This document shows, piece by piece, positions 1 through 64,000 of a stretch of DNA of 64,000 nucleotides. The stretch is taken from assembly GCA_036172245.1 (NCBI GenBank), contig JAYWIR010000092.1, positions 124,001 to 188,000 of the forward strand, given 5' to 3'. Made by a program: the position numbers and the translations under genes. The notes under the pieces are model-generated. The model saw only the letters and a program-made list of their open reading frames with translations, was not told the origin of the DNA and ran no database searches. Position 1 is the first letter of the stretch; each line of letters starts with the position of its first letter. The DNA comes from Raillietiella orientalis (Eukaryota).

Positions 1-3000
1 ATCGGAAGACGGCTTCATACAGGTAGGGAAGAAAGGAAAGGGGAGGATGCTCGACAAGGATCAATAAACCACTCTTATCCTGGAAGGTGAGAATTCACAA
101 GGCGAGAAGATGGAGGTAGCGCAGGAACGCGCGGAAGAAGAAATAGCCGAAGCCACTCCGGTGTCTTAGGAGGCCCTGCAATCTACGGAGGAGCTGGCAT
201 CACTGGCTAATAAAGTCCTAGAGGTGATGAGCGGTCCCCACCAAGAAAGAATTTTGCAAAAGAGCTGCAATGCACAGGAGAAGGTCAACCAGGTTGTGGA
301 GGTCTTCGAGCGCGAGTAGCTAGAGGAACAGCTTCTCGACGTAAAGGCGAACTTCTGCACCAATGTCGAGATAGAAACGCTATCTCGAAAATTGATCGCG
401 CGGGCCGAAAACTCGACTGAGGAGGCGGAAGTAACCGACCTCTCCGGAACAGAGAGTGACGCCGGCAGCGAGAAGCCCGCTGCTTCTTTATTGTCTGGAA
501 GAGCACGCTCTCTCAGACAGAAGAAGCTCAGGAAGGGCAAGAAATCGGTCTTACCCTTTTATGGCCTCTTCCCTATCGACCGCCAGAGGGCTGAACATCG
601 CCTCCTGGAATGTAAACGGTGTGGTGGACCAGGGAAAAAGAAAAAGGATTGTGCGGACCATCGCACAACAAGACATAGTCTGCCTGCAGGAGACCAACAA
701 GGTGGGTCTCAAGATTAGTCAGCAAATGGAACGGCGATTCAAAGGGCAGATCTTCGTCAGCGAGGAAGAGCGGAACACGCAGTTTGTGGCGGTCCTAATC
801 AATAACAAATTGGCTCCCACTATTCTCAAAGTGTTCTGTCCCCTACCGGGACGAATCATCGGCGTGCGACTGGCCTGGTCCGCCACTGTTCACCCTATCC
901 TGGTGAACCTGCACTGGCCGTACAGGCTAAAACATCGTTGAACGGAGGCGCTGCATGAAGCACTTCGTGAAAAGGTTGCTTCCAAGGACGTCGTGATTGT
1001 TGCTGGCAATCTCAACATATTGGATGAGATCACTCACTCCGAAGACGCCAGAAGAAGGACGGCGTATCGGCGGTTATCCGAAGAGTTCAGACTGGTGTGT
1101 CGAACTGCAAGTCACAAGCCGATCGATCACCTCCTGCACAGCACCAAACTCGGGAATCGCATCGATGGTTTTCCAGACATTATGACCACGGTGTTCGATC
1201 ACCACCTGGTGCGGTTTTTTCTGAAAACGGAGAATCCTCGGCGTTGGCAAGGCACCAAGGCGGCGCTCATCAGCATGCCCGCCTGGTTCGAAACCCATCC
1301 CGTACATCAGGCTGTCCTGCAGACGATTCTGAAGACAACAACAATTCGAGGAATCGCCATATGATACAGCCTAAAACACAGGATACACTTGTTTGCAAAC
1401 ATGCAGTTCGGGGAGAGGCGCTTGAGGCAGGAGGAGTACCGGGAGCTGAACATGCAAGATCGCTCACTCTGAAAGTACTTCGATCAGTACGAGAGTCGGT
1501 ACGTCTTCAAGAACATAAAAGGGGAAGTCGGCGTGCTGGAGAAGAGAAATCTAGCAACAGATATCTTCTGCATCCAGTACGACGGCCAAAAGCGACAGTC
1601 GTCTGAGGACATCGTGGATGCCTTTCACAGGCATTACACAGAACACTTCAGGCGACAACAGCTGTGTCGCTCTAGTCAACAGGCCTTCTTGAGCTATCTC
1701 GAGAAGAGGACCGACGACCTCCAGCGGAACAGACTGGAGGAGGAGTTCTCCGAAGAAGAGGTGAAGACTGCGTTTGGGCAACTTCGCAAGGACGTGGCAG
1801 CGGGCCCTGACAGTGTACCCATCACGCACTATCAGCGGTACCTGCACGCCTACCTGAGCTTGTTCCACCAGTTGACCCTCTGCATCCGGGAAGAAGGCAG
1901 ACTACCTCAGTCCTTCTACGAGAGTCGGATGAGATTGCTGCCGAAAGGAGGCGACTCTACCCAGATCGCCCAATGGAGGCCAATCTCGATCCTAAACTCC
2001 GATGCCAAGTGGTTGGCGAAGATCTGGTCCAACCGCTTAGGCAAGGTCATGTCGAGGCTGATCTCTCCGGTCCAGACATGTGCAGTCCCAGGACGACACA
2101 TGTCGGACAATGTCAAGTGTGCCCAGGCCACTGTTGGACTCAGTCGATACGTCGGCGAGAACCTGGTGCTGGTGTTCACTGACATGAAGAAGGCCTTCGA
2201 CTCCATCGACCACGGGATGCTGCTGAAGGTTCTGGAGAAGCTAGGCCTTCGGGAACACTCCTGCAACTTCGAGAGGGTGGTACTGCAGAATCAGTACTGC
2301 CGAATCAAAATCAACTGCCAGGAGACGGCAGCAATCCGGATGGAACGGGGAGTCCGGCAGGGCGATTCGCTAAGTCCGATGCTGTTCGTCATCTACATGG
2401 CAGCGTTGTCGTCCTTTATCGAGAAGTGCGTACGACTGCAAGGCATAACAATCGATGGCGAGCGTCTTTCCTATCTGGCATACGCTGATGATCTTTCCTC
2501 TTTTATCACGGGAGAGAGAAATCAACGAGGGTTTCTGGATGTGGTAGACCTGATGGATCAAGGCCTTGGTCTAAAGATCAACGCCCAGAAAAGCCAGCTC
2601 TTGCCCATTGGAATCCTCGATCTCTCCGCTTTAGCGGGGAGAGGATTCCGAACGGTGGACAATTCCAAGTACCTGGGTGTCTACATTGCCGACGACTCCG
2701 CGTCGAAGCTATTGTGGACCGAGAACCTAGGGAAAACGGCCAACGAAGCAGCCAAGCACACTAGAACGGACCTTGCTATGATGCGAAAGGCCTCATATGG
2801 AACGGAGTACTCCTTCGTAAAGTGCTATTCAGAACGGCCTTCGCGAGGATAAACAAGGACACCACGAGGGAGTTCGACAAGCTGCAGAGAAAAAAACTGA
2901 GGCCACTATCGCCCAGGAGTCCCACTAAAACCCCTGTGTCGTCTAAGGGAAGAAGGCGGTTCCGGGATGAAGTAGCTCGCACACTTCATAGAAATCATGG

Positions 3001-4210
3001 ATACGCGACACATCCTGGACATTGCCACTCACTGGGATGACTGGCCGTATGCGGCGCACAAGGCCTACGCTTTGTTGTTGAACAACTCGAAAGGCCTGAT
3101 GACTGCGTTGCTAGGCTGAGCAGGCGAATGGAAAATAATGGACCCAACCTGGACGAGGTAGCAACGGCTGGTGCGAAAGCACAAAATCAAGATCGTGCCG
3201 AGAAGTGGGGAACTCTGGCAGGACGAGTCCATCCTGGTGATCCCTTGGATGCTTTGTGTCCCCCTGGACACGAGAAACTGGATCCACCAGCGGTCCAGAG
3301 TTACCCTTCAACAAATCCAGGAGTGGAAACGAGGAGGGTACCTACATCACACTCGTATACTTAGGTATATAGAGATGATGTTAGGAAGGTTTGCCCACAT
3401 GACTCCCGAAGTGTGGTTCAACCACAACGACTTTGCGTGGTCCAGGGTAACCAAAACAAACCTCCGAAGACTAATGCAAGAAGAACACAGTGATATCAGT
3501 GCCCTTCAGGAAGCCGCCGATCGCTAAGGGAGTGACCGGATCAACCTGTTAGCGATTGGCACGACGCTCTGGAGGAGTGACCTTCCGCCGGGCACCCAGG
3601 ATGACCTCCTGATGTTTTATCATGGAGGAATCCAGAGTGGGTCCCGATCGCAGCACTACACCGGAAGAAGGGAAGATCGAGACTGCACAGCATGTAGTGA
3701 CATCGACACGAGACTTCACGTCTTGACGTGTCCCACATTGCTGCATGACTAACTGATCCAGAAAAGGATCATCGGACTCACCACCGGGTCCGTAATGGAG
3801 ATCCTCGCCGGGAATTTTCAGGGGGATGGTAATGTTTCCTGTTACAATTTCATGGTGAGGACGACCATCGCCCCCTTCATCACCGCCATACTTGTGCGGT
3901 GGTGGAAAATGAGGAAAGTAACAGGAGCCGCACCACCGATGGAGATCTTACAAATTCTCCTGAAGAGGGCAATCGGCATTATAAACTGTGGGAAAATCCA
4001 AGCCTGGACGTACCGATCCATCCTGAAGAGGATCCAGGACGACGCCCGGGACCATCCAGCTGGAATTCCCCCCTTAAAAGCAGAACTCCAAGGCAACCCA
4101 AGGACTCCCAAGTGCAAAGTGTTTGTATTGAGTGAATGAGAGTGTGAATGTAAAAGGTTTATTTTTATAGAAGAATAAATTTACCCCACCCCTTATGGGA
4201 ATTGGGGAAA
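1..4210 (+). mobile_element. L1/Tx1-like LINE, family A copy 1 (5' part outside window), degenerate
   Basis: End of ORF1, then ORF2 with EN (IASWNVNG, CLQET), RT (WRPISILNSDAK, GVRQGDSLSP, YADD). Ends in AATAAA (4174) + CCCCA..TGGGG hairpin + AAA. Colinear with 55204-59413. Confidence 0.95.
561..4077 (+). pseudogene. Family A ORF2 (APE endonuclease + reverse transcriptase), several stops and frameshifts
   Basis: ORF pieces 456-941, 993-1364, 1533-2852, 3171-3527 and 3795-4139 match the family A copy 2 ORF2 in order. Confidence 0.93.
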
Positions 4211-5447
4211 TCTGCCGAGTCGACGATGGGTCGACTGCATGCAGCGTGCTTTTGCTCGTCGCGACGCTGCTTTTTACGGCGTTCGTAGCATTTGCAGAGA
4301 AACCTGCGCTAAAGTGGGACTGTCCCGAACTCGGAAGAGACAACCGAACAGGGCTAGAAGTTTTCGCACTGTTGCGATCTTCCTGTTTCCCTACCTTTCC
4401 CTCCATGGTGTTACGGTGATTTCCTCGTTCCTGGCTCGGAGAGGTAACTGCGATTTCGGCATTGAGGGAGGGCACGGCACGCGTCAAACCCTCGCGCCCC
4501 TTTTTAATTGGCTTTCCCGCCGTGACTTTCCCCTTTCGGGGCGTTGCGGAAGGGGATGCTTTCTTATCGTCCGCTGATCGCCCGTTGATTTTTCCGAGTT
4601 TTTGCGGACGACCTTTTTTTATTTGCCGCTGCGGCTCTTCGTGCAGTGGTCTCTTGAACCCGACGAATTTCCGCTGCAGCTCTTTTTCTTGCAAGTACCA
4701 GGCATTTTTTGATTTCGTGCCCGGAATCTTCGCAAAAGCGGCATCTTGGAGAGGGGCACTCTTAAATTCGGTGCCCATTTTTGCCGCACTGCTCGCACGC
4801 GCGAGTCTGGCCTATGAACCACAGGTGAACGACCGTGCCGTTCACCTGCAGCTGCTCACGCACAACACGCCTGTTCGCGACGGTGATCCGCGCGGTGGCT
4901 TGTCCAATGTGGACAGAGGGAAAATCCTTAAGAGGATTTGGCCTCCTGTACAGGGCGTGCACGATGGCGAACTTCGCTAGCACGCTTACAAGATCGCGGT
5001 CGGAGATTTCCGGTTCGATGGCGCACAATTGAACGACAAAAGGGTCGTCCATCGCGGTAGGTAGGACTTCCTTGCCATTGATGGTCAACGGCGTACGGAG
5101 AAGGCGCTGCAGAAGTGCTGCGTTCTTCCACCGAATCTTCGTATATTCCATCCTGCCGGCAGGCATTATGGCAAGGAGTTTCTCCTCGCGAACGCCGATA
5201 TGGACGAGCTCATCATTGAGCTCACTTCCAATTCTCCCGTTAAGGGGCCCACTGACCTTATAACGGAGTGCAGGCATGTATCCGGATGACACATATGCCT
5301 AGAACTCCGCATTACAGGGTCCTGGCCTTTGGGAGCTAACGACGGCGTAACCCCTCACCGGGGGTGAGGAAACCATTATGGAGGATGCGGCCACTTCAAG
5401 GGCAGCTGAAGTGCATCCAGTGGCTTGCTCCTCCACACTATCCTGTG
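4211..5447 (-). mobile_element. Family C ORF1 N-terminal fragment (host of A copy 1)
   Basis: GYMPALRYKV...CEQCGKNGHRI knuckle, colinear with 59414-60650. Confidence 0.9.
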
Positions 5448-6215
5448 CTGGACGATCAGGGCCACGAGCACTCGGCACCCGCCCAAATCCGCGGCCTGCT
5501 GCGTAGATACTTCTCCTCCCTGTATGCCAGGGCACCTCCGGAGAGAAACGTCTCACGATTCCTTCTTCCGGAAGTCGCTCCAGCGATCATGGAGGAGGAG
5601 AAAAAGACCATCGACGAGCCTTTCACGATGGACGAGATTCTCTTGGCCATCGGAAAGCTCAAGAGACGCAAGGCTCTAAAGGAGAACGGCCTGCCAGCGG
5701 AGTTTTAAAAAACTTTCGCTACTGAGCTTACATCCATGGTACCGCAAGTCACCTTGCTGAGCTTACATCCATGGTACCGCAAGTCATTAGCGGCCTCCTT
5801 AGCAGCTTTGTGCTGCCTTTGCGGGATCGTCGCAGCCTGGAGCAAGGCTACGGGACGACAACGCGACAAGGGTGTCATCCAGCCAGCCATCCAGTTTCTG
5901 AAGAGGGCGTTCCGATGGCCCTACCGGGATACAGGAATACAAAAGAAGCTTGCCGGCATCTTGCAAAGGCTGCAACGGCACCACCAGCAACTGTGATCCC
6001 TTTCCTTACCCTCCTAAATTTTCTTTTATTTTTTTGTTTTGTTTTTTGTTTTTCTCCCTTCTCCCTCCTACCGTGGTGGACCGTACCGGTCTGCGAATCG
6101 GTGACCCTGCAGGCTCTGTGTTTCTTCGTGCGTGGCTGGAGCCATGTTCCAGCCACCGCACGTCTTTGTAAATGTTTATTAAACACTAAACGCCCCGGCG
6201 AAATCCGAGTGAAAA
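5448..6215 (+). mobile_element. Family D-like remnant: ORF2 linker piece, ORF2 C-terminus, 3'UTR and 3' terminus
   Basis: LDDQGHEHSAPAQIRGLLRRY matches 61642 onward. It then jumps to AALCCLCGIVAAWS...*, a T-rich UTR and the terminal hairpin at 6188-6215. Assigning the 3' piece to family D is inferred from contiguity. Confidence 0.8.
5722..5786 (+). repeat. Direct repeat, 2 x 30 bp (CTGAGCTTACATCCATGGTACCGCAAGTCA), at an internal deletion breakpoint
   Basis: Copies at 5722-5751 and 5757-5786. Confidence 0.9.
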
Positions 6216-7466
6216 TCGAACGCCTTGTGAAAGACGACTGCGACCACCAAGGCACCTGGCGTTTTCTGCTGCCTTCGGCGCCTGTTCTTCTTGCTTGTGG
6301 CAACGACTTTCGCTTCAGCCAGGCTTCGCTGCGCCACGACTTTTTTCAGCTGCAACCAGGTACGCGCGAAAAGGATGTTCGCCTCCATGGATCGTCCCGT
6401 AACCGCGTAGGTTTGTTCCCGGCTCACCACAGATTCCGCGATACTTCCTAACCGCGCGACCCACAGCTTGGAAAACAACTTGACGTCCGAGTTCACCAAG
6501 GTGATCGGACGCCAGTTGTTAAGTTGACGCAAGTCTCCGCCTTTCGGCAGGAGACGCACCTTCGCTGAGCGGAAGGAATCCGACACATTCCCGGATTCAC
6601 TCATCAGCGTCGCGAGTTTCAGCATCAAGGGAATGAGCTCCACTGCAAAGCACTGATAAAACTCTGCAGGGAGCCCATCCTCGCCTGGCGCCTTTCGTCT
6701 CTTCAGCCCAGCGATTGCGGACGAAAATTCATCCGCCGTGAAGGGCTCGTCGAGACGTTTGCGTTCCTCCTCGCCGACAACACGAGCATCCTGAGACAGG
6801 AGTATCTCAGAAAGAATATCCTCCGTCGGGGATTCCGCGTAGAGCGAGGAGTAGTAGCGTCTCACAATGCGGCGTACTCCTGCTGGGGCCGAACATTCCT
6901 GGCCCTTGTCGTCCAACAGGCATGCTGCTCCGGACTGCCAGACCTGGCGCTCGGCCCTCGCCTTGTACTCTGCGAGACGCCCGACATCGGCGCGTCTCGA
7001 AAACGTGCGGGCCTGCAGAAAGTCTCTACTGTTGGCCACCCCCTCTCCGAAACCGCGTGGAAGCCGGTGCAAGGGGAATTGGCAGCAGAACTCGCGGACA
7101 GATCTTTTGAGATCGTCCCAGTCCGCAAGTCCTTGAATGGCAAAGCCTCGGAGGTATCCACGTAGATGCTCCGCAGCCTCCGGTTGGCTACGCCTATCCG
7201 CCGGCATCCTCCAGTTTTGCAAGGAAGGCTCCTTGTCTGGCGGAAGGAGCTCAAACTACAACCTGTGATGGTCAGAAAGCTTAGTCAACAATCGTACTCT
7301 CCTACCCACACGCGCATGCAGGTTCTCATCGAGGAAAACGTGATCGAGCGATCCTTCCATTCCAGGTTCGCTGACAATCAAGTTGGCGGCGTGCACCAAC
7401 GCGCACATCTCGATGGGCAGGGCGCGCTCCCTGTGGTGGCTTCAATCGTCGAAGAGCAGACGGACG
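6216..7466 (-). mobile_element. Family C-like ORF2 fragment (end of EN to RT 'HKAFD')
   Basis: ORF 6179-7222 is close to ORF 50679-53123 (PEAAEHLR, DWDDLKRSVREFCC, NNWRPITLVNSDVK). Confidence 0.92.
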
Positions 7467-10373
7467 TTTTCATCCGGTCACGTCGGGGCGTTTATTAAAA
7501 AACACTGTACATTTGCGGTACTAGGTCCCGCTAAGGCAAATATTTCATGAAACCTGCCAGGAAGCCGGTTCTGAAGCCAGCTTGTCCTCCTCGGCAGCGG
7601 AGGGGATAGAAGGTAAAACAAAAAGAAAAATAGATGAAATTACAGAAAGGAACTATTTGGAGGTCCGGGAAGGGATCACAGCCCGCTGGAGGAGGGGACC
7701 ATCCTCTCTAGGATGCCCTCGAGGTCCCTCGTCGTAGCTCCCAGATGGGACCAGCCGATCGCGATTCGCAGTTAGCGACCCGCGTGTACGATGGGGTTCC
7801 TGTCGCTGCTCCCTCTTTTGGCTGCGCTCCAGGCGGCCACAATCCATCTGAGGGAGAAGAGCGCTGCCGGGGTTTAGGCTGGTGGCAGGGCGTCTCGCAC
7901 GAAGAGGAGTCTCACAACGTCTCTTGGGGTACTGCCTACCGGCATAGGGAGGATCCCAGGATGACGTTCCCACAAGAGCCGGAGGGCAGCGCAGTCCACT
8001 AGCAGATTTATGAGGGATTCCTTCTCCCGCACACTGCACAGTTCTGTCTCACGTTCCCCAACTTCCAGTGGTGGTGGCGCATGTTGCAGGGAAGAACCGA
8101 GTGCAACAATAACAGCGCCGTTTTCTGCCACTTGAGAGGAAGGGTGGAGAAGTCTTTGAACAACGGGGGCCACTTTAGGTCATCCGCCGGGATGCCAAGC
8201 AGCTCGCTTTATCTCCGTATTCCATGCGAGTGAACGCTTGAGGATGCGGCATCTGCCAGTTGCCTCATTGTCCACCCGCTTAGATCCTTCTCCTTGCCCG
8301 CTATCCGGCAAGAGACTTGCCATCTCGGCTTCCGGTTGTTATGAAGCGCCCTTCGTAGGAAGGGCAGCGCCGTGGCCAGTGGGATCGTCTCTGCCCAAGT
8401 GCTTCTGGCGGGACACACGATCATGTTCCGCAGCGTGCAGTGGGTGTAGATGCCGGTGCGCAGGCGGTTGTCGGATTCTCCACTGATGTCTTTTAACTTT
8501 GCCCACGTTCCAACTGTTTCTTCCAGCCATGCGCTGGAGTTGTCGGGGCTGCAGGCCATGCACCCGTTCTCCTTTGCCAGGGTGGCCATGCGTCCCAGGA
8601 GAAGTCCGCATTTTCTTATTTTCCGGCAGGGGCACAGAAGAAAAGACGCGAGTTCTTCAGTCCCGGACACACGTCTTGCGAGAAGGCGGGCTGGAACGCA
8701 CCAACGGAAGTTCAACATTTTCGCTGAGATGGCTAGTGTGCGTCACCGCATCTGTGTTTTCATTCGCTCCATCGTCAGGACGCTAAGACCTCCGTCCCGA
8801 CGTGGTGCGCGCAAATCCTTTAAAGGCACATGAGGCCCCCCGCCGCCCCACAGGGCGATGCGTAGGAGGTCCTTTGTTCTTTTTTTCAGTTCACGGGGTA
8901 CGGGGAAAACAAACAGCAGAGGGCGAAGGAGAGGAACCGCGAACGCGTTCCACACCGCCGCCCGCTCCGGCAAGTGAAGCTTGCCTTCCAGAAACGGGCC
9001 GATCGCTGACTCCACTTTTTGGAGACGACCTGACCAGGCTTCTGACTGGCAGAAGTCCCCCAACGGAACGCCGAGGTACTTTAAGTACCTCTATGTGGGG
9101 ATCCTCAAGCGGATCCAGTCAAGCCGTCCGACTCACGTCGCACCAACCACTACCTCCGATGACTTCGCTTTATTTACCCGTAGTCCAGTCCCGCGGCTTA
9201 GCAGACAGAAGAAATCCTCGACTACGGCTGCCGGGGCGGACGTGGGCAAAAGGAGCAGAAGATCATCGGCGTAAGCCGCTACGGCCGGCGTACCTGGACA
9301 CGAGCTTCGGTGGGCAGCCAATGTCACCCTGTATGCTCTCAGCACCAGTTCGAAATAGGTGCTAAAGAGCAGGGGAGTCAGGCTGTCGCCCTGTCAAATG
9401 CCGGGCCTCACCTCTACGCCGAACACGTGCTGTCCTCTGAAAAACAAGTTGATGAACGCATTGCGCCAGCAGGCGCCCAGGTAGACCGTTAAGGTGTCCG
9501 GGAAGCCCATGCGATCCAGGAGCTCCAGAAGGAGTTCTCGGTCTACGCAATCGAACGCTTTGTGCAGATCGACTGCGATCGCTAGAGCCCCCTTCCCTTA
9601 CCGGTCGTCCCTTACTTGCTGCGCTGGCGCTTCCAAGTCAGTTTTGTCGACATTCCGTTTTTTCTCCAAATTTTTCTCGCGTTGCACATGGAACCATGTG
9701 CTGGCGAAGAACAGGTTCACTTCCATGCTTCGCCCGGGAAAAGCGTACGTCTGTTCCATGCTGAAAAAGCTGTCAGCTACCTGCCGCAGTCCCGCAGCCC
9801 ACAGTCCAGCCAGCAGCTTGGCGTCCGTGTTCACAATCGTGAACGGACGCTAGTTGCATCATTTTCTGAGGTCTTCTCCCTTAGGAAAGAGCCTCACCCA
9901 GGCTGACCGAAACGAGGCGGGAACATCGCCTTCGTTTCGGATCAGCCGTGTCAATTGGAGCACCAGGGTGGTCAGCTCTGCAACGAAGCTCTGAAAGAAC
10001 TCCGCCGGCAGGCCGTCCTCCCCTGGCGCGTGACGCCTCCTGAGCCTTTTAATAGCGGTGGTGATTACACCGGTCGTATAAGGCTCGTCGAGGCTTTCTT
10101 TCTCCTCCTCCCTTATGGCCGGGGCTCCATCTGGGAGCAAGCGCTGGAAGGCGTCCCACTCCGCAGGTACCCTGGCGCAAAGAGAGCAGTAAAATCCACG
10201 CACGAGGCGACGTATCGATGCTCGGTCTGAGTATTCCTTGTCCAGGTCGTCCAGCACGCTGGGCGGCCCGGATTGTCATCCTTGACGCTCGCCCCAACTT
10301 TGTACTCGGCCAAGCGACGAATGTCAGGGGTCCTTGAGAAACGACGGACGTGCAAATACGCCCTTTTGTAACG
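7467..10373 (-). mobile_element. Family B-like LINE, ORF2 linker to 3' end, degenerate
   Basis: APGEDGLPAEFF, AYADDLLLLL, ERAAVWNAF, PRRDGGL. Terminal AATAAA-hairpin at 7467-7496. Confidence 0.92.
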
Positions 10374-15198: not shown

Positions 15199-15200
15199 GA

Positions 15201-17203: not shown

Positions 17204-17300
17204 CGTCGGCCGCGCCCGAGCACTCTACGCCCTGGTCGTCGAGCAAACAAGCCGTTCCTGACCGCCAGACCTGGCGCTCGGCCTTGGCCTGGTACTCCGA
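17204..17300 (-). mobile_element. Host ORF2 remnant (SEYQAKAERQVWRSGTACLLDDQGVECSGAADV)
   Basis: Translation matches the family C ORF2 linker. Confidence 0.85.
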
Positions 17301-47254: not shown

Positions 47255-47348
47255 CGCTCTAGGGTGGACGTGTTTTCTTGGAGCTCCTCGTGCCAGGAAG
47301 TCTCCCCCAGTGCAAGCGTCGTGTGGTTCGGTTGTCGATCAGGCAGCG

Positions 47349-53792: not shown

Positions 53793-53962
53793 TGAACTTG
53801 CTCCGCGGCTCGAAGTATTGTGCGCTTGACAACTTAATCAGTTCATTGTGCTCGTGTGTGCCCGGAAAGGGGAAGTTTTCCAGAAGAAACAAAAAAAGAA
53901 GCGGCGAGGAGATCGCGGCAAAAGACCTGCAGTGGTCCCGTGCAGCAAGACCAGCTGCCAGG

Positions 53963-55750
53963 ATGCAGGCACCTAGAAGAGGAGTGGATAGACCGTCGTC
54001 CCCCATGGAAGCCATGGAGGTAACGTGCGGCAACGGCGAGGCGGTGGCAGGCATGCCGAGGATCGCGCCCGCGGCGGGCTTTGCTGCGCCGGCGGCGGCG
54101 ATGCCAAGGGTCGTGCCCGCGGCGACGACGGCGGAGGTCGTGCCCGCGTCGGCGACGCCGAGGATCGTGCCCGCGGCGGGGAAGGTCGCGCCTGCGGCGG
54201 CGATGCCGAGGGTGCCGCCCGCGGCGGTAACGGCGGCAACGTCGAGGTTTGCGCCCGCGGCGGTGGCGTCCCAGGCGGGACCCGCGGGCGTCCACGCGGT
54301 GCAGGGAGCGACGCCATCTTGTTCGGCTGCGGCGTCGCAGCCCTTTTCTTATGTGTCGGTGGCGGCTGGACAGGCGAGTGTCCACCCACCTAGGAAATTC
54401 GGTAAGCCGCTTAGCGGAAAAGTACTAAAAGTGGACCGACCAATAGTGGAAATAGGCCCCAACGTGAAGCCCATTATCTTCAAGACGGGGCTAATAAAAT
54501 TTAATAACATCAGGGAGGTCTATTTGTCCCTCGACAAGACGGACATAGACTTTGATCGCATTCAGGCGATCATTCCATCAAACAACGGGTTCACAGACTT
54601 TACAGACTGTGGAAACATTAGAGAGCGATTGATCCAGAAGGGGATCAATATACAAGGACGGATGGTTTGTGGTATTGGCGAGATGCCATACACAACCGTC
54701 TTTTTAAACGGCATCTCCATCCTCACAGCGCAACTAGCAGTGTGGAATTACTTGGAGCAGTTTGGGGAAGTTCTGGACCTTGATTTCCAGAACTTCTCTG
54801 GAAACATATTTTCTGGCGACATGATCGCCAAGATGAAGTTGAGGGAGGGAGCGGTGATCCCTGGATTGGCCGTTATTGACGAACAATCCCAGGGAGTGAA
54901 TGTGCGTTACCGGCAACAACCGGTATTCTGCACCGGGTGCAAGCAGTTCGGCCACAGGGCCGGGGCTTGCCCAACGTGTCGTTGTTTCCGCTGCGTCAAA
55001 GTAGGACATCAAGTCCGAAACTGCCCGCAGCCGGAGGTGTGCTCCTTCTGCAAGAAACACGGACATGCGAAATGGGGCTGTCCGGAGTTTGAAAACTGCA
55101 GAAGGATTCGAGGTCTCTCTCCCGTGAGAGAGAGAAACATCAAGGAGGCCGAGCAGCCTCAGAAGGCAGGAAGGCAGAAAAAAGTGAAAGAAGCCGTCCC
55201 GGTGTCGGCGGACGGCTTCATAGAAGTGGGAAAGAAGGGAAAGAGGAGGATGCTCGTCAAGGAGCAAGGAACTCCTCAAATCCTGGAAGCACCAGAGCAG
55301 GAAGGCGAGAAGATGGAGGTAGCGCAGGAAGGCGCGAAGGAAGAGAGACAGGAAGCCACTAAAGTGTCGCAGGAAGCTCTGCAGACTACGGAGGAGTTGG
55401 CAACACTGGCGGAGGAGATCATGGAGGTGCAGAGCGGTCCTCAGCAAGAGAAAATCTTGCAGAAGATCTGCACTGCACAAGAGAACATCAACCAGGTTGT
55501 GGAGGTCGCTGAACGCGAGAAGTTAGAGGAACAGCTTCTCGACGTGAAGGCGAACTTCTGCGCCAAAGTCGAAATAGAGGCGCTATCTCGAAAATTGATC
55601 GCGCAGGCGGAACACTCTACGGAGGAGGCGGAAATTACCGACCTCACAGGTACGGAGAGTGACGCCGGCAGCGAGAATCCCGCTGCTTCTTCATTGTCTG
55701 GAAGAGCACGCTCTCTCAGACAGAAGAAGCTCAGGAAGGCCAAAAAATAG
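53963..55750 (+). CDS. Family A ORF1 protein, open; Ala/Pro repeats and three CCHC knuckles (start codon uncertain)
   Basis: CTGCKQFGHRAGAC, CFRCVKVGHQVRNC, CSFCKKHGHAKWGC. Confidence 0.88.
   Translation: MQAPRRGVDRPSSPMEAMEVTCGNGEAVAGMPRIAPAAGFAAPAAAMPRVVPAATTAEVVPASATPRIVPAAGKVAPAAAMPRVPPAAVTAATSRFAPAAVASQAGPAGVHAVQGATPSCSAAASQPFSYVSVAAGQASVHPPRKFGKPLSGKVLKVDRPIVEIGPNVKPIIFKTGLIKFNNIREVYLSLDKTDIDFDRIQAIIPSNNGFTDFTDCGNIRERLIQKGINIQGRMVCGIGEMPYTTVFLNGISILTAQLAVWNYLEQFGEVLDLDFQNFSGNIFSGDMIAKMKLREGAVIPGLAVIDEQSQGVNVRYRQQPVFCTGCKQFGHRAGACPTCRCFRCVKVGHQVRNCPQPEVCSFCKKHGHAKWGCPEFENCRRIRGLSPVRERNIKEAEQPQKAGRQKKVKEAVPVSADGFIEVGKKGKRRMLVKEQGTPQILEAPEQEGEKMEVAQEGAKEERQEATKVSQEALQTTEELATLAEEIMEVQSGPQQEKILQKICTAQENINQVVEVAEREKLEEQLLDVKANFCAKVEIEALSRKLIAQAEHSTEEAEITDLTGTESDAGSENPAASSLSGRARSLRQKKLRKAKK
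54052..54270 (+). repeat. Degenerate GC-rich coding minisatellite (MPR[IV]xPAA... units)
   Basis: About 5 PR-x-x-P-AA units; a similar array with fewer units lies at ~20730-20880. Confidence 0.8.
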
Positions 55751-55763
55751 GTCTTCCCCTTTT

Positions 55764-58700
55764 ATGGCCTCTTCCCTATCGACCGCCAGGAGGATAAACA
55801 TCGCCTCCTGGAACGTAAACGGTGTGGTCGACCAGGTAAAAAGAAGAAGGATTGTGCGGACCATCGCACAACAAGACATCGTGTGCCTGCAGGAGACCCA
55901 CAGGATGGGTCTCGAGATAAGCCAGCGAATAGAACGGCGATTCAACGGGCAGATGTTCGTCAACGAAGGAGAACGGAACACGAAGGGTGTGGCGGTGCTA
56001 ATAAAGAACAACTTAGCCCCCACTATTCTGGAAGTGTTCTGTCCCCAACCCGGACGAATCATCGGCGTGCGACTGGCCTGGTCCGCGACTGTTCACTTTA
56101 TCCTGGTGAACGTGTACGGGCCGCACAGGCTAAAACATCGTTGTGCGGAGGCGCTGCATGCAACACTCCGGCAAAAGGTCGCCCCTAAGGACGTCGTGAT
56201 AGTTGCTGGCGATCTCAACATCTTGGATGAGATCATTCATTCGGAAGACGCCAGAGGAAGGACGGCGAATCGACGGCTATCCGAGGAGTTCGGACTGGTC
56301 TGGCGAACAGCAAGCCACAAGCCAATCGATCACGTCCTGCACAGCACCGAACTTGGGAACCGCATCCAGGGGTTTCGCGACACTATGACTACGGTGTCCG
56401 ATCACCCCCTGGTGCGGTTTTCCCTAAGAACGGAGAATCCTCGACGGAGGCAAGGCACCAGGGCGGCGCTCATCAGCATGCCCGCCTGGTTCGAAACCCA
56501 TCCCGGACATCAGGCTGTCCTGGAGGCGATTCTGAGGGCAACAACAATCCGAAGAGTCGCCGACTGGGACAGCCTGAAACACAGGATACACCTGTTTGCG
56601 AACATGCAGTTCGGGGATAGGCGCTTGAGGCAAAAGGCGTACCAAGAGCTGAACATCCAAGATCGCTCCCTCTCAAAGTACTTCGATCAGTACGAGAGTC
56701 GGTACGTCCTCAATAACATAAAAGGGGAAGTCGGCGTGCTGGAGAAGAGAAATCTGGCAACAGATATCTTCTGCATCCAGTACGACGGCCAAAAGCGACA
56801 GTCGTCTGAGGACATCGTGGATGCCTTTCACAGGCATTACACGAAACACTTCAGGCGACAACAGCTGTGTCGCTCTAGTCAACAGGCCTTCTTGAGCTAT
56901 CTCGAGAAGAGGACCGACGACCTCCAGCGGAACAGACTGGAGGAGGAGTTCTCCGAAGAAGAGGTGAAGACTGCGTTTGGGCAACTACGCAAGGACGTGG
57001 CAGCGGGCCCTGACAGTGTACCCATCTCTCACTATCAGCGGTACTTGCATGCCTACCTGCGTTTGTTCCACCAGTTGACCCTCTGCATCCGTGAAGAAGG
57101 AAGACTTCCACAGTCCTTCTACGAGAGTCGGATGAGATTGTTGCCAAAAGGAGGCGACCTCACGCAGGTCGCTCAATGGAGGCCAATCTCGATCCTGAAC
57201 TCGGATGCCAAGTGGTTGGCGAAGATCTGGTCCAACCGCTTAGGCAAGGTCATGTTGAGGCTCATCTCTCCGGTCCAAACGTGTGCAATCCCTGGACGTT
57301 ACATGTCGGACAATGTCAAGTGTGCTTAGGCCACCGTCGGACTCAGCCGATACGTCGGCGAGAACCTGGCGCTGGTGTTCACTGACATGGAGAAGGCCTT
57401 CGACTCCATCGACCATGGGATGCTGCTGAAGTTTCAGGAGAAGCTAGGCCTTCCGGAACACTTCAGCAACTTCGTGAGGGCGGTACTCCAAAACCAGTAC
57501 TGCCGAATCGAAATCAACGGCCAGGAGACGGCAGCAATCCGGATGGAACGGGGAGTCCGGCAGGGCGATTCGCAAAGTCCGATGATGTTCGTCATCTACA
57601 TGGAGGCGTTGTCGTCCTCTATCGAGAAGAGCGGACGACTGCAAGGCATAATCATAGATTCCGAGCGTCTTACCCATCTGCATACGCTGATGATCCACTC
57701 TTCTTTATCAAGAGAGAGAAATCAACGAGCGTTTCTGGATGTGGTAGACCTGATGGATCAAGGCCTGGGTCTAAAGATCAACGCCCAGAAAAGCCAGCTT
57801 TTGCCCGTTGAAATCTTCGATCTCTCCACTCTAGCGGGGAGAGGATTCCGAACGGTGGACAAGGCCATGTACCTGGGTGTCTACATTGGCGACGTCTCCT
57901 CGTCGAAGCTATTGTGGACCGAGATCCTAGGGAAAACGGCCAAGGAAGCAGCCAAGTACACCCGAACGGACCTTGGAATGAAGCGAAAGGCCAATATATG
58001 GAACGGAGTACTTTTTCCAAAAGTGCTCTTCGGGGCGGTCTCCGCTAGGATGAACAAGGACACTACTAGGGAGTTCGACAAGCTGCAAAGAAAAACACTC
58101 TGGGGCCACTATCGCCCAAGAGTAAGACTGAAACCCCTGTGTCGTCCCAGGGAAGAAGGAGGTTCCGGGATGAAGTCGCTTGCACATTCCATGGAAATCA
58201 TGGATACGCGACACATCCTGGACATTGCCACTTACTGGGATGACTGGCCGTATGCGGCGCACAGGGCCTACGCGTTGTTGCTTAACAACTCGAAAGGCCT
58301 GATGACTGCGCTGCTAGGCCGAGCAGGCAAATGGAACAAAATCGACCCCACCTGGACGAGGAAGCAACGGCTGGTGCGGAAGCACCAAATCAAGATCGTG
58401 CCGCGAAGCTGGGAACTCTGGCAGAACGAGTCCATCCTGGTGATCCCTTGGTTGCTTCCTGTCCCGCCGGACACGAGAAGCTGGATCTACCAGCGGTCCA
58501 GAGTTACCCTACTGCAATTCCAAGAGTGGAGGCGAGGAGGCTACCTACATCAATCTCGTATACTTCGGTATACAGAGATGATGTTAGGAAGGTTTGCCCA
58601 CAGGACCCGCGAAGTGTGGTTCAACCACAACGACTTCGCATGGTCGAGGGTAACCAGAACAAACCTCCGAAGGCTCATCCAAGAAAACGACCGTGACACC

Positions 58701-59279
58701 AGTGCCCTCCAGGAAGCCACCGTACGCTATGGGAGTGAACGGTTCAACCTGTTAGCGATCGGCACGACGCTGTGGAGGAGCGACCTTCCGCCGGGCACCC
58801 AGAATGACCTCCTGATGTATTATCACGGAGGAATCCAGAGTGGGTCTTGATTGCAGCACTTCACAGGAAGACGGGAAGACCGAGACTGCGCAGCATGTGG
58901 AGACGACGACACGAGACTTCACGTCTTGACGTGTCCCACACTCCTGCATGACTGGCTGATCCTGGAAAGGATCATAGGACTTACCAACAAGTCCGTTATG
59001 GAGATCCTCGCCGGGATGTTTCATGGGGATGGTAATGTTCCCTGTTACAATCCCATGGTGAGGACGACCATAGCCCTCTTCATCACCGCCATACTTGTGC
59101 GGTGGTGGAAAATGAGGAAAGCCAGGAGAACCGCACCACCGATGGAGATCCTACAAGGGCTCTTGAAGAGGGAAATCGGCATCAGGAACTGCGGGAAGAT
59201 CCACGCCTGGACGTACCGATTCATCCTGAAGAGGATCCAGGACGACGCCCGGGACCATCCAGCTGGAATTCCCCCCTGA
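55764..59279 (+). pseudogene. Family A ORF2; stops at 57329 and 58850, local frameshift removing YADD at ~57680
   Basis: ORFs 55659-57329, 57375-58850 and 58851-59279. The TACGCTGATGAT sequence is out of frame. Confidence 0.93.
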
Positions 59280-59413
59280 AAAGCAGAACTCTAGTGCAAC
59301 CCAAGGACCCCCAAGTGCAAACTGTTTGTATTGAGTGAATGAGAGTGCGAATGTAAATTTCGTATTTTTGTTGAAAAATAAACTTACCCCACCCCTTGTG
59401 GGACTTGGGGAAA

Positions 59414-60659
59414 CCTGCCGAGTCGGCGATAGGGCGACTGCATGCAGCGTGCTTTTGCTCGTTGCGACGCTGCTTTTTACGGCTTTCGTAGCCTTTTTAG
59501 TGGGGCCTGCGCTGCAGTGGGGCTGTCCGGAACTCGGAAGGGACAACGGAACGGGGCAAGAAGTCTTTGCACTGTTGCGATCTTCCTGTTTTCCTACCTT
59601 TCCCTCCAGGGTGTTACGGAGATTTCCTGGTTCCAGGTTCGGAAAGGTGCCTGCGAGTTCGGCAGAGAGGGAAGGCACGGCACGCGTCAAAGCCTCGCGC
59701 CCCTTTTTAATTGGCTTCCCCGCCGTGACTTTCCCCTTTCGGGGCGTTGCGGGCGGGGATGCTTTCTTTTTATCCGCGGATCGCTCGTGGTTTTTTTCGA
59801 GTTTTTGCGGACGACGTTTTTTATTTGCGGCTGCGGCTTTTTGTGCAGTGGTCTCTTGAACCCGACGAATTTCCGCTGCGGCTCTTTTTCTTGCAAGTAC
59901 CGGGCACTTCTTGATTTCGTGCCCGGAATCTTTGCAATAGCGGCATCTTGGAGAGGGGCACTCTTTAATTCGGTGCCCATCCTTGCCGCACTGCTCGCAC
60001 GCGCGAGTCTGGCCTAGGAACCACAGGTGAACGACCGTGCCGTTCACCTGCAGCTGCTCAGGCACAACACGCCTGTTCGCGACGGTGATCCTCGCGGAGG
60101 CTTGTCCAATGTGGACAGAGGGGAAATCCTTTAAAGGATTTGGCCTCCTCCACAGAGCGTGCACGGTGGCGAACTTCGCCAGCACACTTACGACATCGCG
60201 GTCGGAGATTTCCGGTTCGATGTCGCACAATTGAACGACAAAAGAGTCGTCCATCGCGGTAGGTAGGACTTCCTTGCCATTGATGGTCAACGGCGTACGG
60301 AGAAGGCGCTGCACAAGTGCTGCGTTCTTGCACCGAATCTTCGTGTATTCCATCCTGCCAGCAGGCATTGTGGCAAGGAGTTCCTCCTCGCGAACGCCTA
60401 TCCGGACGAGCTCATCATTGAGCTCACGACCGATTCTCCCGTTAAGTGGCCCACTGACCTTATAACGGAGTGCAGGCATGTATCCTGATGACACATATGC
60501 CTGGAACTCCGCATCGCAGGGTCCTGGTCTTTGGGAGGTAACGACGGCGTAACTCCTCACCGGGGGCGAGGAACCCATTACGGAGGATGCGGCCACTTCA
60601 AGTGCAGCTGAAGTGCATCCAGTGGCTTGCTCCTCCACACTATCCTGTGTACTGGCCAT
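59414..60659 (-). pseudogene. Family C ORF1 N-terminal part
   Basis: CEQCGKDGHRIKEC and CRYCKDSGHEIKKC. Confidence 0.9.
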
Positions 60660-60788
60660 GTTGAACTATGCTACTTGGCAGATTGCACAGGAACACACAA
60701 GTGCGAGCAAAAACGCAGGCACAAAGTTGCCCGATCGTTGGCGCGGAAAGACGCGGAAACACGTCTGCACTGTACGAGCGCAAGAGAT

Positions 60789-63700
60789 CGAACGGATCTC
60801 CGGAGGGCGGCTATGGTACAGGTGTGGAAGAGCGAAAAGTTGCGATGTCGCCTACCTGCTTCGGCCAGCCGTCGAGGCCGCGGCTCGGGGCGTGCGGTTC
60901 GACGATCACGGTCGTGTCGGCCAGCTGACTCTCAGGTGGTCCGACTCGATCGATCTGATCGTCACGAACGTGTACGCACCGAGCGGCAAGGACCTGATGA
61001 ACAGGAAGGCGAGGAAAGAGTTTTTCCTTGTCCTTCGGCGAGACTGGCTGACCGAAGCAGGCGTGCGGAATGCCCATCTGGTTGCAGGCGATTTCAACGT
61101 TCGCCTGAAACCAGATGAGCAGAATCCCGAGCGTGACCTGGTCAACGAGGTGTGCATGGCGGTGCACACCTGTAATCTGTTGGTCAGTGCACCGGGGATG
61201 AAAGACAGCATTGACCACGTGTTTCTTGACGAGCAACTGTGCCCTCGCGTGGGCAGCCGCGGCAAGTTACCGTGCGAGCTGTCCGACCATCGCCCGCTAG
61301 TCCTCGAAATCCTTCCGCGCGACAGGGGCCCCCCCTCGTCAGCGTGGCGTCTCCCAGGGGACTGGCTGATGCTCCCGGACGCGGCGGAACATCTCCGCAC
61401 GTTCATACGGAGCTTCAGGCTGCGGACACTCCAGGATTGGGACCGCTTCAAGCGGTCGGTCCAGGAGTTCTGCGACCAGTTCCCTCTGCACCGCCTACCT
61501 ACGGGTTTTGGGATCAAGGCTTGTAACGAACGAGCCTATCTGCAGGCCCGCCGTTACGTTAGGACCCCCGACATCCGCAGGCTGGCGGAATACAACGCGG
61601 GAGCCGAGAGGCAAGCCTGGCAGTCCGGATCGGCCAGCTTGCTGGACGATCAGGGCCAGGAGCACTCGGCAATCGCCCAAATCCGCGGCTTGCTGCGGAG
61701 TTACTACTCCTCCCTGTATGCCAGGGCACCTCCGGAGAGGAACGTCTCACGACTCCTGCTTCCGGAAGGCGCTCCAGCGATCGGGGAGGAGCAGAGAAAG
61801 ACCCTCCACGAGCCTTTCACGATGGACGAGATCCTCTCGGCCATCGGAAAGCTCAAGAGGCGAAAGGCTCCAGGGGACGACGGCCTGCCCGCGGAGTTTT
61901 ATCAAACTTTCGCGGCTGAGCTTACCCCCCTGGTACAGCAACTCACCTTGCTGATACGCGAAACAGGTGACGTTCCCGCCTCGTTTCGTTCGGCAAAGGT
62001 GCGGCTCCTCCCTAAGGGAGGAGATCTGAGGAGCATGAACAACTGGCGTCCCATCACAATAGTGAATGCGGACGCTAAGTTGGTGGCTAAGGTTTGGGCA
62101 GAGCGTCTGGGACGGGTTGCCAACATCTTCATCAGCCCGGAACAGACATATGCTGTTCCCGGGCGAAGCATGGAGGCGAACCTTTTCCTCGCTTCCACCT
62201 ACCTAGAGCTCCAACATGAAAGGAGCTTGGTGCGCAGCCGGAATTCCGGTGCGTGCGCCGCAAAGGGGTTGGATGGTCGGGTGGGTGAGGGAGCCCTTGC
62301 GGTCGCAATCCACTTGCGAAAAGCATTCGATTGCGTCGACCAGAATCTCCTTCTGGTGCTTCTGGAACGCTTGGGCTTCCCAACCTCATTAGTGGCCTAT
62401 CTGCGCTCCTGCTGGCGCGACGCGCTCATCAATGTTACTTTCAGCGGACAGACCGTGCACGGCGTGCCGGTGCGGCGTGCGATCCGGCAGGGAGACAGCC
62501 TGAGCCGCTTGGTCTTCAGTACCTACTTTGAGTTGGTACTGAGAGCGTACAGGGGAACTCCGGCGCACCTGCCGCACGACTGTGCCGGTACGCCGGCTGT
62601 TTCAGCATACGCGGACGACCTTCTGCTGCTGCTCCCTATGTCCACCCCGGCTGCGGCGGTCGAGGAGTTCTTCGACCTGCTGCATCGGGGAACCGGACTT
62701 ACGGTGAACAGGGCGAAGTCGTCCGTGATGCCAGTTGGTGCGGCGTGGGCAGAGCAGCAGGACTGGGTCCGTTTTGGGATCCCCACGGTGAGGTACTTCA
62801 AGTACCTTGGTGTGCCGTTGGGGGACTACTCCCCTGCGGAAGCGAGGTCCGGCTGCCTTCAAAAAGTAGAGACGGCGATCGGCCCGTTCCGAGGCGGCAG
62901 GTTTTTTCTACCTGAACGGGCCGCGGTTTGGAATACGTTCGCGGCTCCTCTCCTCCGCCCCCTGCTTTTTGTTTGCCCCCCCACAGAGAGGATTGAAAAG
63001 CGGACAAAGGACCTCCTCCGTATCGCCCTTTGGGGCAACGGGAGGGCCCGAGGCCGCTTAAAGGACTCGTGCGCTCCTCGTCGGGATGGTGGTCTGGACC
63101 TCCTGACGCTGAAGCGGCTGGAGCTTCAGCTCCAGTTCCGCTTGTCGGCACTCGTTCCAGAGTTGTGGTGCACCTTTTGGTGCGTCCCTGCACGTCTTCT
63201 TCTCCAGCAAGCCACCGTCAAGACGGGACTGACGTCGTTTCTTGCACTCCGTCGCCGCGTCAACCGATGCGGACTCCAGCTACGGAGGGTGGCTGCGCTG
63301 TATCGGAAAAACCCAGGATTGCTCACCTGTCGCCCGTTTAACGGTAGTGCCTGGTTGCAGGAAACCGTTTGAACGTGGGGACAGTTCGGCATGCAACGCT
63401 CCCAACAGGAACGAAGGTTCCTGTTTGGGGGTTACAGAAGTTGCACGCTCCGCGAGATCCTGGAGGATCCAAAGAAGAGAGCGTGGGCAGGAAGAACCGC
63501 CCTCGCTGCTGCGCTGCCCTCCCTGATGGAAGATCTGGACAGCAATGTTGCGGCGAAGTGGGTGGTTACAGTAACAATCTCCGGAAAGGAGAAGAAGATA
63601 GGAGAGTGAAAGACGGGCCAGTTAACAGACGCTGCGACCCGGAGTACGCCTCCCAATGGACTTCTGCGCTGGGGCGCGCTGCTCGATGTTCCCATTGAAC

Positions 63701-64000
63701 ATCTGAAGTGGCCCCCGGTGCTCATGAACACTTCCGCCCTCCCCTTAAAATGGCAGGAGTCGGCTCTCCCGTTGCAGCACTGGGGACTCTTCTGCAATGC
63801 CCGCCGACACCACTGGACCTGGGGAGCGGTGGACCCCAATTGCGTCAGGTGTGGGGAACGGGAGTCCCTCCCCCACCTGCTAGTGGATTGTGTTGCCCTT
63901 CGGCCCCTTTGGTTTCGCTTTGCCGCGGCCATCGGAATCCCCTGCGGCAACCCCAGGGACGCACTGAAAGCCCTCTTCGTTGCTGACGCCCTTCGGCCAG
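60789..64000 (+). pseudogene. Family D ORF2 resumed (EN, RT with intact YADD; stops from 63372)
   Basis: AGDFN, SIDH, LSDH, AIRQGDSLS, AYADD, CVRCGERESLPHLLVDC. Confidence 0.92.

Follow-up and report, generated by a model that had tools for sequence, protein, structure and literature searches.

The question raised by a 64,000-nt stretch of the Raillietiella orientalis genome (assembly GCA_036172245.1, contig JAYWIR010000092.1, positions 124,001–188,000 of the forward strand; hereafter the window) is how its long interspersed nuclear elements (LINEs) came to lie inside one another. An initial annotation, made from the sequence alone, had read the array as a network of several families that target one another at family-specific sites. 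At least five related L1-group lineages are nested in the window, and we consider it probable that the nest grew as new elements were inserted, repeatedly and independently, into resident copies by target-primed reverse transcription at lineage-preferred sites.

Approximately 30 pieces were delimited by self-BLAST and by tblastn with the window's own intact open reading frames (ORFs). Analysis of six-frame ORFs with Pfam showed many ORF2 copies with an apurinic-type (APE-type) endonuclease (EN; PF03372) followed by a reverse transcriptase (RT; PF00078), the two domains being found in a single ORF in copy C3 (E-values of 7.7e-9 and 1.1e-17, respectively) and also in D3 and A2. The nearest solved relative of ORF2 was human LINE-1 ORF2p (E = 2.4e-45, vs. 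6e-15 for R2 proteins); the L1 endonuclease scored 1e-4. In ORF1, zf-CCHC matched the C lineage at an E-value of 7e-4 and 20.0 bits, below the cutoff of 20.8, and Pfam gave no matches in the ORF1s of D, A, and B; two Cys-X2-Cys-X4-His-X4-Cys motifs were readable in the ORF1 translations. Judged by these domains and motifs, the elements are L1-group retrotransposons of the non-long-terminal-repeat class, with predicted CCHC knuckles in ORF1 and predicted APE-type EN and RT in ORF2. In a maximum-likelihood tree of 546 ORF2 codons of the insert copies, the C clade (C2, C3) and the B superclade (B5, B1c, B3, B6, H1, P10) were each supported at 100/100, and D and E were single branches. The ORF2 of the A lineage was only ~25–28% identical to that of the other lineages. 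The copies were nested as A2 in C3 in D3 in B6 in H2, as A1 in C1 in D1 in X1, as E1 in C2 in B1 in H1, and as B4/5 in D2.

The 3′ ends were located with a profile of the 3′ end shared by B, C, D, and E, run across the window, and with BLAST for the A 3′ end. The profile returned nine B/C/D/E-type termini at E ≤ 6e-5 (6215, 7468, 12410, 17202, 18611, 34606, 42421, 45148, and 49189), in addition to one weak match at 29883–29910 (E = 0.096) and three noise matches (E > 3); two A-type ends (4210 and 59413) brought the census to 11 termini. Together with direct reading of the junction sequences, the census bore out all junction coordinates of the initial annotation. B, C, D, and E have a common 3′ terminus, AATAAACGCCCCGG(N5-6)CCGGGTGANAA, and, in full-length copies, a common 5′ terminus, GRACGTGTYTTY; A copies terminate in AATAAAC..CCCCACCCCTTGTGGGACTTGGGGAAA. 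A poly(A) tail was absent from all 11 termini, each of which ended with two to four A residues behind a conserved motif. Poly(A) at the 3′ end of the DNA copy is typical of mammalian and most plant L1 elements. A monocot L1 lineage of the stringent type is described in the available part of one study (PMC3472496). For a 3′ hairpin, four pairs were predicted with zero compensatory changes, leaving the structure unsupported beyond sequence conservation. Ten of the 11 inserts lay antisense to their host, with 34606 judged from the host remnant only and the end at 7467 as the exception (two-sided binomial p ≈ 0.012, hand calculation).

The site of the B lineage was the most sharply defined. B-type junctions had been annotated at the Gly-Phe-Gly-Val codons of ORF2 (10373, 18611, 34606, 42421, and 45148), and four of these were indeed 3′ ends on one bond, the fifth (10373) being a 5′ junction. 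The ends at 18611, 42421, and 45148 each joined the host sense strand right behind GG-TTY-GGN-G, after the first base of the codon following Gly-Phe-Gly (GFG; codon 307); the host-sense flanks ..GAATTTGGTG^ (H1), ..GGATTTGGGG^ (D2), and ..GGATTCGGCG^ (H2) were followed at the break (^) by the reverse complement of the B 3′ end. At 34606, a fourth B end stood behind CTTCGGAG(TGA), with the 5′ terminus of another B copy 8–11 nt further on; this host remnant would fit a second hit on a duplicated target beside an earlier insert (B2, then B3). The 5′ junction at 10373 belongs to B1, the insert that ends at 18611, and ~10 nt of host H1 were lost between the two flanks. The chance of four of 11 ends falling on one bond was calculated by hand, for ~6,200 positions on two strands, as ~C(11,4)/12400^3, or ~2e-10. 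Eight copies of the GFG site outside lineage A were present in the window, four filled (H1, D2, H2, and the remnant) and four intact (C3, D3, X1, and B4).

The stubs of hosts H1 and H2 (18612–18705 and 45049–45147) began at the same nucleotide (within 2 nt), ~95–100 nt before the nick. They were 0.65 identical and their inserts 0.75, and are therefore not co-duplicates. Their common start could mark an additional hot spot or a point at which truncation is favored; a target duplication of ~97 nt was rejected as their source, as the duplication of E1 measured ~47 nt and those of the young inserts 11–13 nt.

The other lineages ended elsewhere. Aligned junction sequences placed both A-type ends (4210 and 59413) at the identical base of C ORF1, each preceding (C/T)CTGCCGAGTCG, in agreement with the single A site of the initial annotation. 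The 3′ end of E1 lay at Ala-Asp-Val (ADV; codon 364) of C2. For D, three junctions (6215, 37086, and 47254) had been assigned to the Lys-Ala-Phe-Asp (KAFD) codons of the RT, of which the first and last were retained: at 6215, the 3′ end of D1 followed ..AAGGCGTTCGA^ at codon 583 of X1, and at 47254 the 5′ end of D3 abutted CACAAGGCGTTCGAC in the KAFD codons of B6. At 37086, a D-like minus-strand piece beginning in KAFD codons abutted a 140-nt D-ORF1-like fragment. Because the right flank is D2 at GFG and the left flank a D-like piece (83% identical to D3) from KAFD, this position is better read as a B-type junction, probably the 5′ junction of the B4/5 insertion with loss of ~850 nt of D2 and 140 nt of filler. 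The KAFD codons thus held one D 3′ end and two 5′ junctions.

The C-type ends were located in homologous EN starts (12410 and 49188), as annotated, C3 ending behind ..GCGCAAGAGA^ (codon 66) and C2 behind ..GGTCGGCTGT^ (codon 75); in alignment with the unfilled copies D2 and B4 they were 26–27 nt (nine codons) apart instead of the ~21 nt first given. At Asp-Phe-Asn-Val (DFNV; EN codons ~163–165), X1 was cut at 7466 beside the 3′ end of H1, and a D-like/C-like joint was seen at 61092; DFNV is a possible fifth hot spot. The exceptions to the pattern at 7467, 37226, and 45048 were as first described.

That site use follows the phylogeny of the inserts was supported by placing the site labels on the ORF2 insert tree, which required four changes, the minimum possible, a value equalled by two of 200 shuffles. 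Target-site duplications were also present. A2 carried a 13-nt duplication, CCTGCCGAGTCGG, on both sides (53780–53792 and 59414–59426), and C3 (49189–60768) an 11-nt duplication, AGCGCAAGAGA (60777–60787, the same as 49178–49188), with 8 nt of filler at its 5′ junction; D2 carries the matching empty site for the C3 target. E1 was flanked by a ~47-nt duplication (17203–17250 and 15141–15188) with 41 of 47 positions identical (87%). Duplications of 13, 11, and ~47 nt indicate genuine target-primed insertions.

Several copies at one site could still descend from one event, and the divergence between them was analyzed with codon pairing guided by the intact ORFs, with omega calculated according to NG86, and with simulated neutral mutation of the same ORFs. 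Among inserts sharing a site, synonymous divergence (dS) and omega were 0.62 and 0.35 for B5/B6, 0.58 and 0.32 for B5/B3, 0.79 and 0.33 for B6/B3, and 1.0–1.13 and 0.21–0.28 for C2/C3, and neutral simulations gave mean omega values of 0.64–0.90. The excess of differences at third codon positions had p-values of 5e-10, 6e-9, 1e-7, and 7e-16 for these four pairs, respectively; over the copies compared, it reached p 1e-5 to 1e-20. Decay of CpG was rejected as its cause, with CpG observed/expected ratios of 0.94–0.98 and an excess that persisted at non-CpG sites. The copies contained 0–8 stops in 490–820 codons at pairwise divergences of 23–30%. At the simulated rate of ~0.1 stop per codon for each unit of neutral divergence, the implied decay after insertion was ~0–13%, well under the observed divergence, indicating that most of it arose in active lineages before insertion.

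The hosts pointed in the same direction. The 94-nt GFG host stubs were 0.62–0.66 identical to one another and the inserts at this site 0.75–0.88; since a host and insert duplicated together are expected to be equally diverged, the more diverged stubs argue against co-duplication. The H1 and H2 stubs were nearest to B4 (0.78 and 0.73) and that of D2 to D3 (0.85), so that hosts at a shared site are visibly different copies or subfamilies, B-like in two cases and D-like in one, as had been proposed. Likewise, D1 lies in a C-like host (X1; nucleotide identity to C3 0.727, omega 0.15) and D3 in a B-like host. The counter-case named in the initial annotation, in which all shared junctions trace to one ancestral insertion, did not agree with this coding constraint, with hosts of different lineages, with the duplications, or with the unequal ages of two nests. 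Overall, the evidence supported copies at a shared site as independent target-primed insertions rather than the products of one ancestral event.

The nests A1-C1-D1 (nest 1) and A2-C3-D3 (nest 5) were compared by self-BLAST: positions 2–5447 were collinear with 55205–60649 at 89% across the A/C junction, and 5446–5760 matched 61640–61954 at 88.6%, with layer identities of 0.889 (A), 0.917 (C), and 0.885 (D). The C elements nevertheless occupy different D positions, C1 meeting D1 at codon 350 and C3 meeting D3 at codon 66. In the stretches common to both, nest 1 contained 13, 4, and 1 stops per layer (18), vs. one in nest 5 (TAG at 57327), and polarised private changes in nest 1 and nest 5 numbered 87:44 in A, 65:39 in C, and 24:9 in D (p 0.006–0.02 each). 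The third-position excess between A1 and A2 was kept without CpG sites (0.143 vs. 0.068 at second positions), and differences between C1 and C3 and between D1 and D3 were flat across codon positions. The TAG at 57327, which splits A2 ORF2, is private, as A1 and every sequencing-run contig placed there have CAG; of the 27 positions listed at which A2 disagrees with all contigs, A1 matched the contigs at 16 (5 synonymous changes, 11 not). In one sequencing-run contig of 3755 nt, C ORF2 and C ORF1 were joined; a contig of this length has no room for the 5.6-kb A element, indicating that an A-free C-like copy exists. The two nests are likely of different age, which would mean two separate insertions at the A site. 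Joint retrotransposition of C and A as one composite is less likely, the unequal decay of the nests and the codon signature of A arguing against it.

As to mechanism, the junctions show that priming is almost always from the sense strand of the host element, and inserts therefore are antisense. B prefers the position after GFG (307), D KAFD (583), C the EN start (66–75), E ADV (364), and A one base of C ORF1. Second-strand cleavage 11–13 nt upstream yields the duplications round the two youngest inserts, and older events left a ~47-nt duplication or target losses of ~10 nt and possibly ~850 nt. The endonuclease of each lineage may recognise a short sequence of its own, in the manner of R1, TRAS/SART, and Tx1, and by that analogy would set target specificity. 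Conserved codons of relatives would offer dependable, harmless targets, so that the array would feed its own growth. The recurrent landing at a few conserved codons suggests that relatives are the safe landing sites at which each lineage aims. A target duplicated next to a 5′ end would also stay open to a second hit, as proposed for B2 and then B3. More tentatively, the lineages might be viewed as a guild of at least five diverged L1-group members with endonucleases tuned to different codon motifs of their relatives and always nicking the coding strand, copies of other lineages and of their own serving as renewable landing pads and the result being a self-propagating ordered array, a retrotransposon 'ecosystem' in which target niches are partitioned, and possibly the sequence basis of a centromere-like region.

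It is improbable that the shared junctions derive from a few ancestral insertions copied by segmental duplication, unequal crossing-over, or gene conversion. Copying would agree with collinear nests at 89% in which three layers have similar identity, with the flat codon-position profiles of C1–C3 and D1–D3, with H1 and H2 stubs that start on the same base, and with P10, a 92% copy of part of H1. It conflicts with site-sharing inserts that diverged under coding constraint, unlike neutral simulations; with hosts more diverged than their inserts and of other lineages, those of D1 and D3 included; with C2 and C3 ends 26–27 nt apart and C1 and C3 at different D codons; and with nest decay as unequal as 18 stops vs. 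1, private changes being ~2:1 in all three layers. An unlikely but conceivable route is guidance by homology or by the structure of nucleic acids in place of the endonuclease's sequence preference. For example, the incoming RNA would pair with the antisense strand of a relative (R-loop), and the displaced sense strand would be nicked where conserved blocks begin or end, or breaks at these places would be captured. All hosts are relatives, the host sense strand was primed in 10 of 11 cases, the hot spots Glu-Ile-Glu (EIE), DFNV, GFG, Leu-Leu-Asp-Asp (LLDD)-ADV, and KAFD are all conserved motifs, 5′ and 3′ junctions both cluster at KAFD and LLDD-ADV, C ends are regional, and filled and unfilled GFG sites look alike. 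However, such pairing gives no reason for four B ends on one exact bond and other motifs for other lineages, the A target lies in the fast-evolving ORF1, in which A and C are only ~24% identical, and comparison by eye of 3′ termini with their targets in the junction sequences showed no complementarity.

Random insertion followed by survivorship within a silent LINE cluster is highly improbable. Nested clusters of this general kind are known, as the accessible parts of the Zepp/ZeppL studies describe (PMC3446292, PMC8226300), and survivorship would account for clustering in an array, but not for four ends on one bond, two on another, and the antisense bias. Hardly credible is an assembly artefact in the form of false joins between repeat copies, in spite of a best sequencing run that contains only 47% of the sampled words of 45000–54999, with next to none in two other runs, of many positions that differ from every sequencing-run contig placed, and of the mosaic identity between B4 and B2 (92% in EN, 64% in ORF1). 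False joins link homologous positions in the same orientation, not a 3′ terminus to an antisense codon with duplications, and five of the six run contigs listed fall on C3 or A2 with few mismatches. Sequencing-run joints, among those listed, were mostly paralogue mosaics (47254->51565, 51341->47187, 51663<->62134), and the joint 49179->60786 is a D2-type empty site that is already in the window.

Repeated independent insertion at lineage-preferred sites thus remained the reading that we favor, and several observations weigh against it. The C-type ends are regional and without base precision, codons 66 and 75 having unlike flanks; in one sequencing-run contig, a C-like 3′ end abuts D-like sequence at a position near 61092 (DFNV; near codon 180), and the 5′ junction of C1 lies at D1 codon 350. 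No obvious difference in sequence separates filled from unfilled GFG sites, and hosts are not lineage-specific, B being found in B-like, D-like, and probably C-like hosts. H1 falls within the B superclade, yet its 3′ end lies not at GFG but at DFNV of X1, and in sense orientation, as a result of which monophyly of the GFG inserts is supported at only 58/24. Extra events are needed for the matching start of the H1 and H2 stubs, for P10, and for the palindromic junction at 37031/37034. Divergence along A1/A2 varied from 0.02 to 0.20 per 300 nt, and gene conversion after duplication may apply there. The counts are small (4, 2, 2, 1, 1, and 1 ends among 11), and all evidence comes from one window. 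The multi-family network of the initial annotation is thereby upheld in its independent insertions and its concordance between lineage and site, and is weakened by the lack of host specificity, the regional C ends, the junction at 37086, and H1.

The individual pieces follow one another along the window. At its left edge lies A1 (1–4210, plus strand), an older A element whose 5′ part is outside the window, with 13 stops in 1262 codons (tblastn map and junction sequence). It is followed by the 5′ part (ORF1) of C1 (4211–5447, minus), which is without the first ~120–135 nt of C3 and has its 5′ junction in LLDD (codon ~350) of D1; by D1 (5448–6214, plus), comprising codons 350–454, an internal deletion, and the C-terminal end with the 3′ untranslated region (UTR), its 3′ end at 6214 in KAFD of X1; and by the C-like host X1 (6215–7466, minus; ORF2 codons 583 to ~165, GFG unfilled). 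The downstream part of H1 (7467–10372, minus), a member of the B superclade, extends from codon ~312 to the 3′ end and has the sense joint to DFNV of X1.

The 5′ part of B1 (10373–12409, plus), which begins with a 5′ terminus containing the GGAGGACGTGTTTTT motif and includes ORF1 and EN codons 1–75, stands at the H1 flank from which ~10 nt are missing. In its EN codon 75, C2 (12410–15196, minus; codon 346 to the 3′ end at 12410) was inserted, and C2 in turn received E1 (15197–17202, plus), a 5′-truncated member of a separate lineage with its 3′ end behind ..GCCGACGT (ADV). The 5′-most stub of C2 (P9; 17203–17300, minus) comprises codons 332–364. Between this stub and the B1 3′ part lies P10 (17297–18002, minus), a 706-nt ORF2 C-terminal fragment 92% identical to H1 8097–8802, which possibly arose by template switch at the C2 5′ junction; twin priming was rejected for P10 and the adjoining B1 3′ part, the sequence of P10 being H1-type and not B1-type. 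The B1 3′ part (17999–18611, plus) is joined to GFG of H1, whose B-like upstream stub (18612–18705, minus) comprises codons 277–307. Further on lie A3 (18706–21100, minus), a diverged A 5′ part with ORF1 and EN to codon 232, and P14 (21160–21711, minus; tblastn map), a 5′-truncated ORF2 C-terminal fragment at the edge of an AT-richer block.

Beyond this block, F1 (30994–32148, plus; tblastn map), with a degenerate ORF1 and EN to codon 293, possibly represents the upstream portion of the host into whose GFG site B2 and B3 were inserted. B2 (32389–34595, minus) is a B 5′ part from the 5′ terminus at ~34595 to EN codon 130, the 8–11-nt remnant of the GFG site (CTTCGGAG..; 34596–34606, plus) lies between its 5′ end and the 3′ end of B3, and B3 (34607–36310, minus) is a B 3′ part with its 3′ end at 34606/7. 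G1 (36299–37031, plus), a fragment of a separate lineage, comprises codons 362–606; the D-like piece from the KAFD codons (37034–37086, minus) is probably the downstream remainder of D2. The junction of these two is palindromic (36951–37087), G1 stopping at codon 606 on the plus strand and the D-like piece starting at codon 607 on the minus strand, with arms of 57 nt that are only 75% complementary and thus not a fresh fold-back. The 140-nt D-ORF1-like fragment (37087–37226, plus) may be either filler at the 5′ junction of B4 or the remains of a D element that was truncated. B4/B5 (37227–42421, plus) has an internal deletion (codons 352–495, near 40064–40073) and a 709-codon open C-terminal ORF, and ends at GFG of D2.

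The host D2 (42422–45048, minus) has its 5′ terminus at 45048 and reaches as far as codon 307, and its EN start shows the unfilled C target. H2 (45049–45147, plus) is a B-like host stub of codons ~277–307. Its GFG is joined to the 3′ end (45148) of B6 (45148–47254, minus), which is present from the KAFD codons onward. At KAFD of B6 begins the 5′ part of D3 (47255–49188, plus) with the 5′ terminus, an ORF1 of 653 open codons, and EN codons 1–66. The C3 3′ part (49189–53792, minus; 3′ end at 49189) contains the end of ORF1 and ORF2 (824 + 473 open codons), A2 (53793–59413, plus) is a full-length A element with its 13-nt duplication on either side and the private stop at 57327, and the C3 5′ part (59414–60768, minus), with ORF1 and the 5′ terminus, is followed by the 8 nt of filler (60769–60776). 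D3 continues to the right edge (60777–64000, plus), with EN from codon ~67, RT, and an ORF open for 906 codons; its 3′ end lies outside the window.

The G+C content was 52–62% across the window, except for a block of 43% at ~21.7–31 kb. This block (21712–30990) lies between two LINE fragments with their 5′ sides facing it and showed no ORF longer than 192 amino acids and no Rfam match; no Rfam family was matched anywhere in the window. It holds faint minus-strand LINE traces at 27303–27401 (E = 9e-6) and 28356–28424 and a decayed LINE-like 3′ end at 29883–29910 (..AATAAAAGATCCGGATTATCCGAGTGAAAA), and is probably much older, AT-richer LINE debris. Its CpG observed/expected ratio of 0.90 gives no sign of methylation decay. 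Among the B copies, B1a (10373–12409), B4 (37227–39330), and B2 (32389–34595) were 88–92% identical in the EN start and only ~64% in ORF1 (dS ~1), a mosaic identity that suggests exchange of ORF1 modules between lineages. Tandem repeats were found in the 5′ part of A2 ORF1 (54053–54264; Ala/Pro-rich, units of 27/36/48 nt) and in the 5′ region of D3 (47374–47456; two copies of 42 nt). Long spurious ORFs occurred on the opposite strand of the G+C-rich elements (5354–5447 and 60553–60665), indicating that ORF length alone over-calls coding in the window. In the 939-codon D3 frame, for example, the first ~75 codons are read-through of the C3 5′ UTR, the 8-nt filler, and the target-site duplication.

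A protein homologue search with C3 ORF2 gave 27 matches, one close (64% identity, on a 2870-nt contig) and the others at ≤31%. Metagenome contigs were searched with a four-sequence alignment, and the 80 loci retained among 263 confirmed contained no member of these lineages and added no junctions; the loci listed were mostly 20–31% identical, with two short matches at 31 and 37%. The literature search, whose coverage did not extend to the original Zepp papers (Higashiyama 1997, Yamamoto 2003), returned no description of a set of LINE lineages in which each has a separate target codon within its relatives. If the pattern holds genome-wide, it would account for the nucleation and growth of LINE-only arrays such as Zepp-type clusters, would provide a natural series of related APE endonucleases that differ in specificity and are useful for studying the evolution of target recognition, and would represent niche partitioning among parasites of one genome.

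Among target-specific LINEs, Tx1L of Xenopus inserts into Tx1D, another transposon. The window resembles the Tx1 clade in its APE-type L1-group elements and in sequence-specific insertion into repeats that include another transposon. Insertion of the Tx1 type, at one defined sequence of a repeated target, applies to B (four ends on one bond) and A (two ends), and for C the likeness is regional only. The window differs in that its targets are coding motifs of related autonomous LINEs, not a DNA transposon, RNA gene, or microsatellite, and in that its lineages cross-target. More broadly, LINE targets listed in the available text of PMC4640811 include rDNA, small RNA genes, microsatellites, telomeres, and transposons. 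As far as the accessible parts of the sources go, which concern EN specificity of R1Bm (PMC1919474) and SART1 (PMC7265360), R1, TRAS, and SART share with the window base-precise, strand-specific nicking of the APE type and repeated use of a multicopy target. They belong, however, to the R1 clade, their targets are host repeats (rDNA, telomeric) and not retrotransposons, and their endonuclease specificity was shown biochemically, whereas that of the elements in the window is a prediction.

The window thereby links target-specific LINEs with the nested LINE clusters of green algae. Zepp of Chlorella and Coccomyxa and ZeppL of Chlamydomonas are, in the available portions of the two reports, L1-type LINEs that form nested clusters via insertion into earlier copies, and these clusters have a higher G+C content than the sequence around them and are possibly centromeric (PMC3446292, PMC8226300). 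Compared by description only, and with those portions, the window is similar in its up to four nested layers with duplications. It differs from the Zepp-type clusters in containing several diverged lineages, each with its own preferred host codon, and in its antisense inserts, common full-length copies, and absence of a poly(A) tail.

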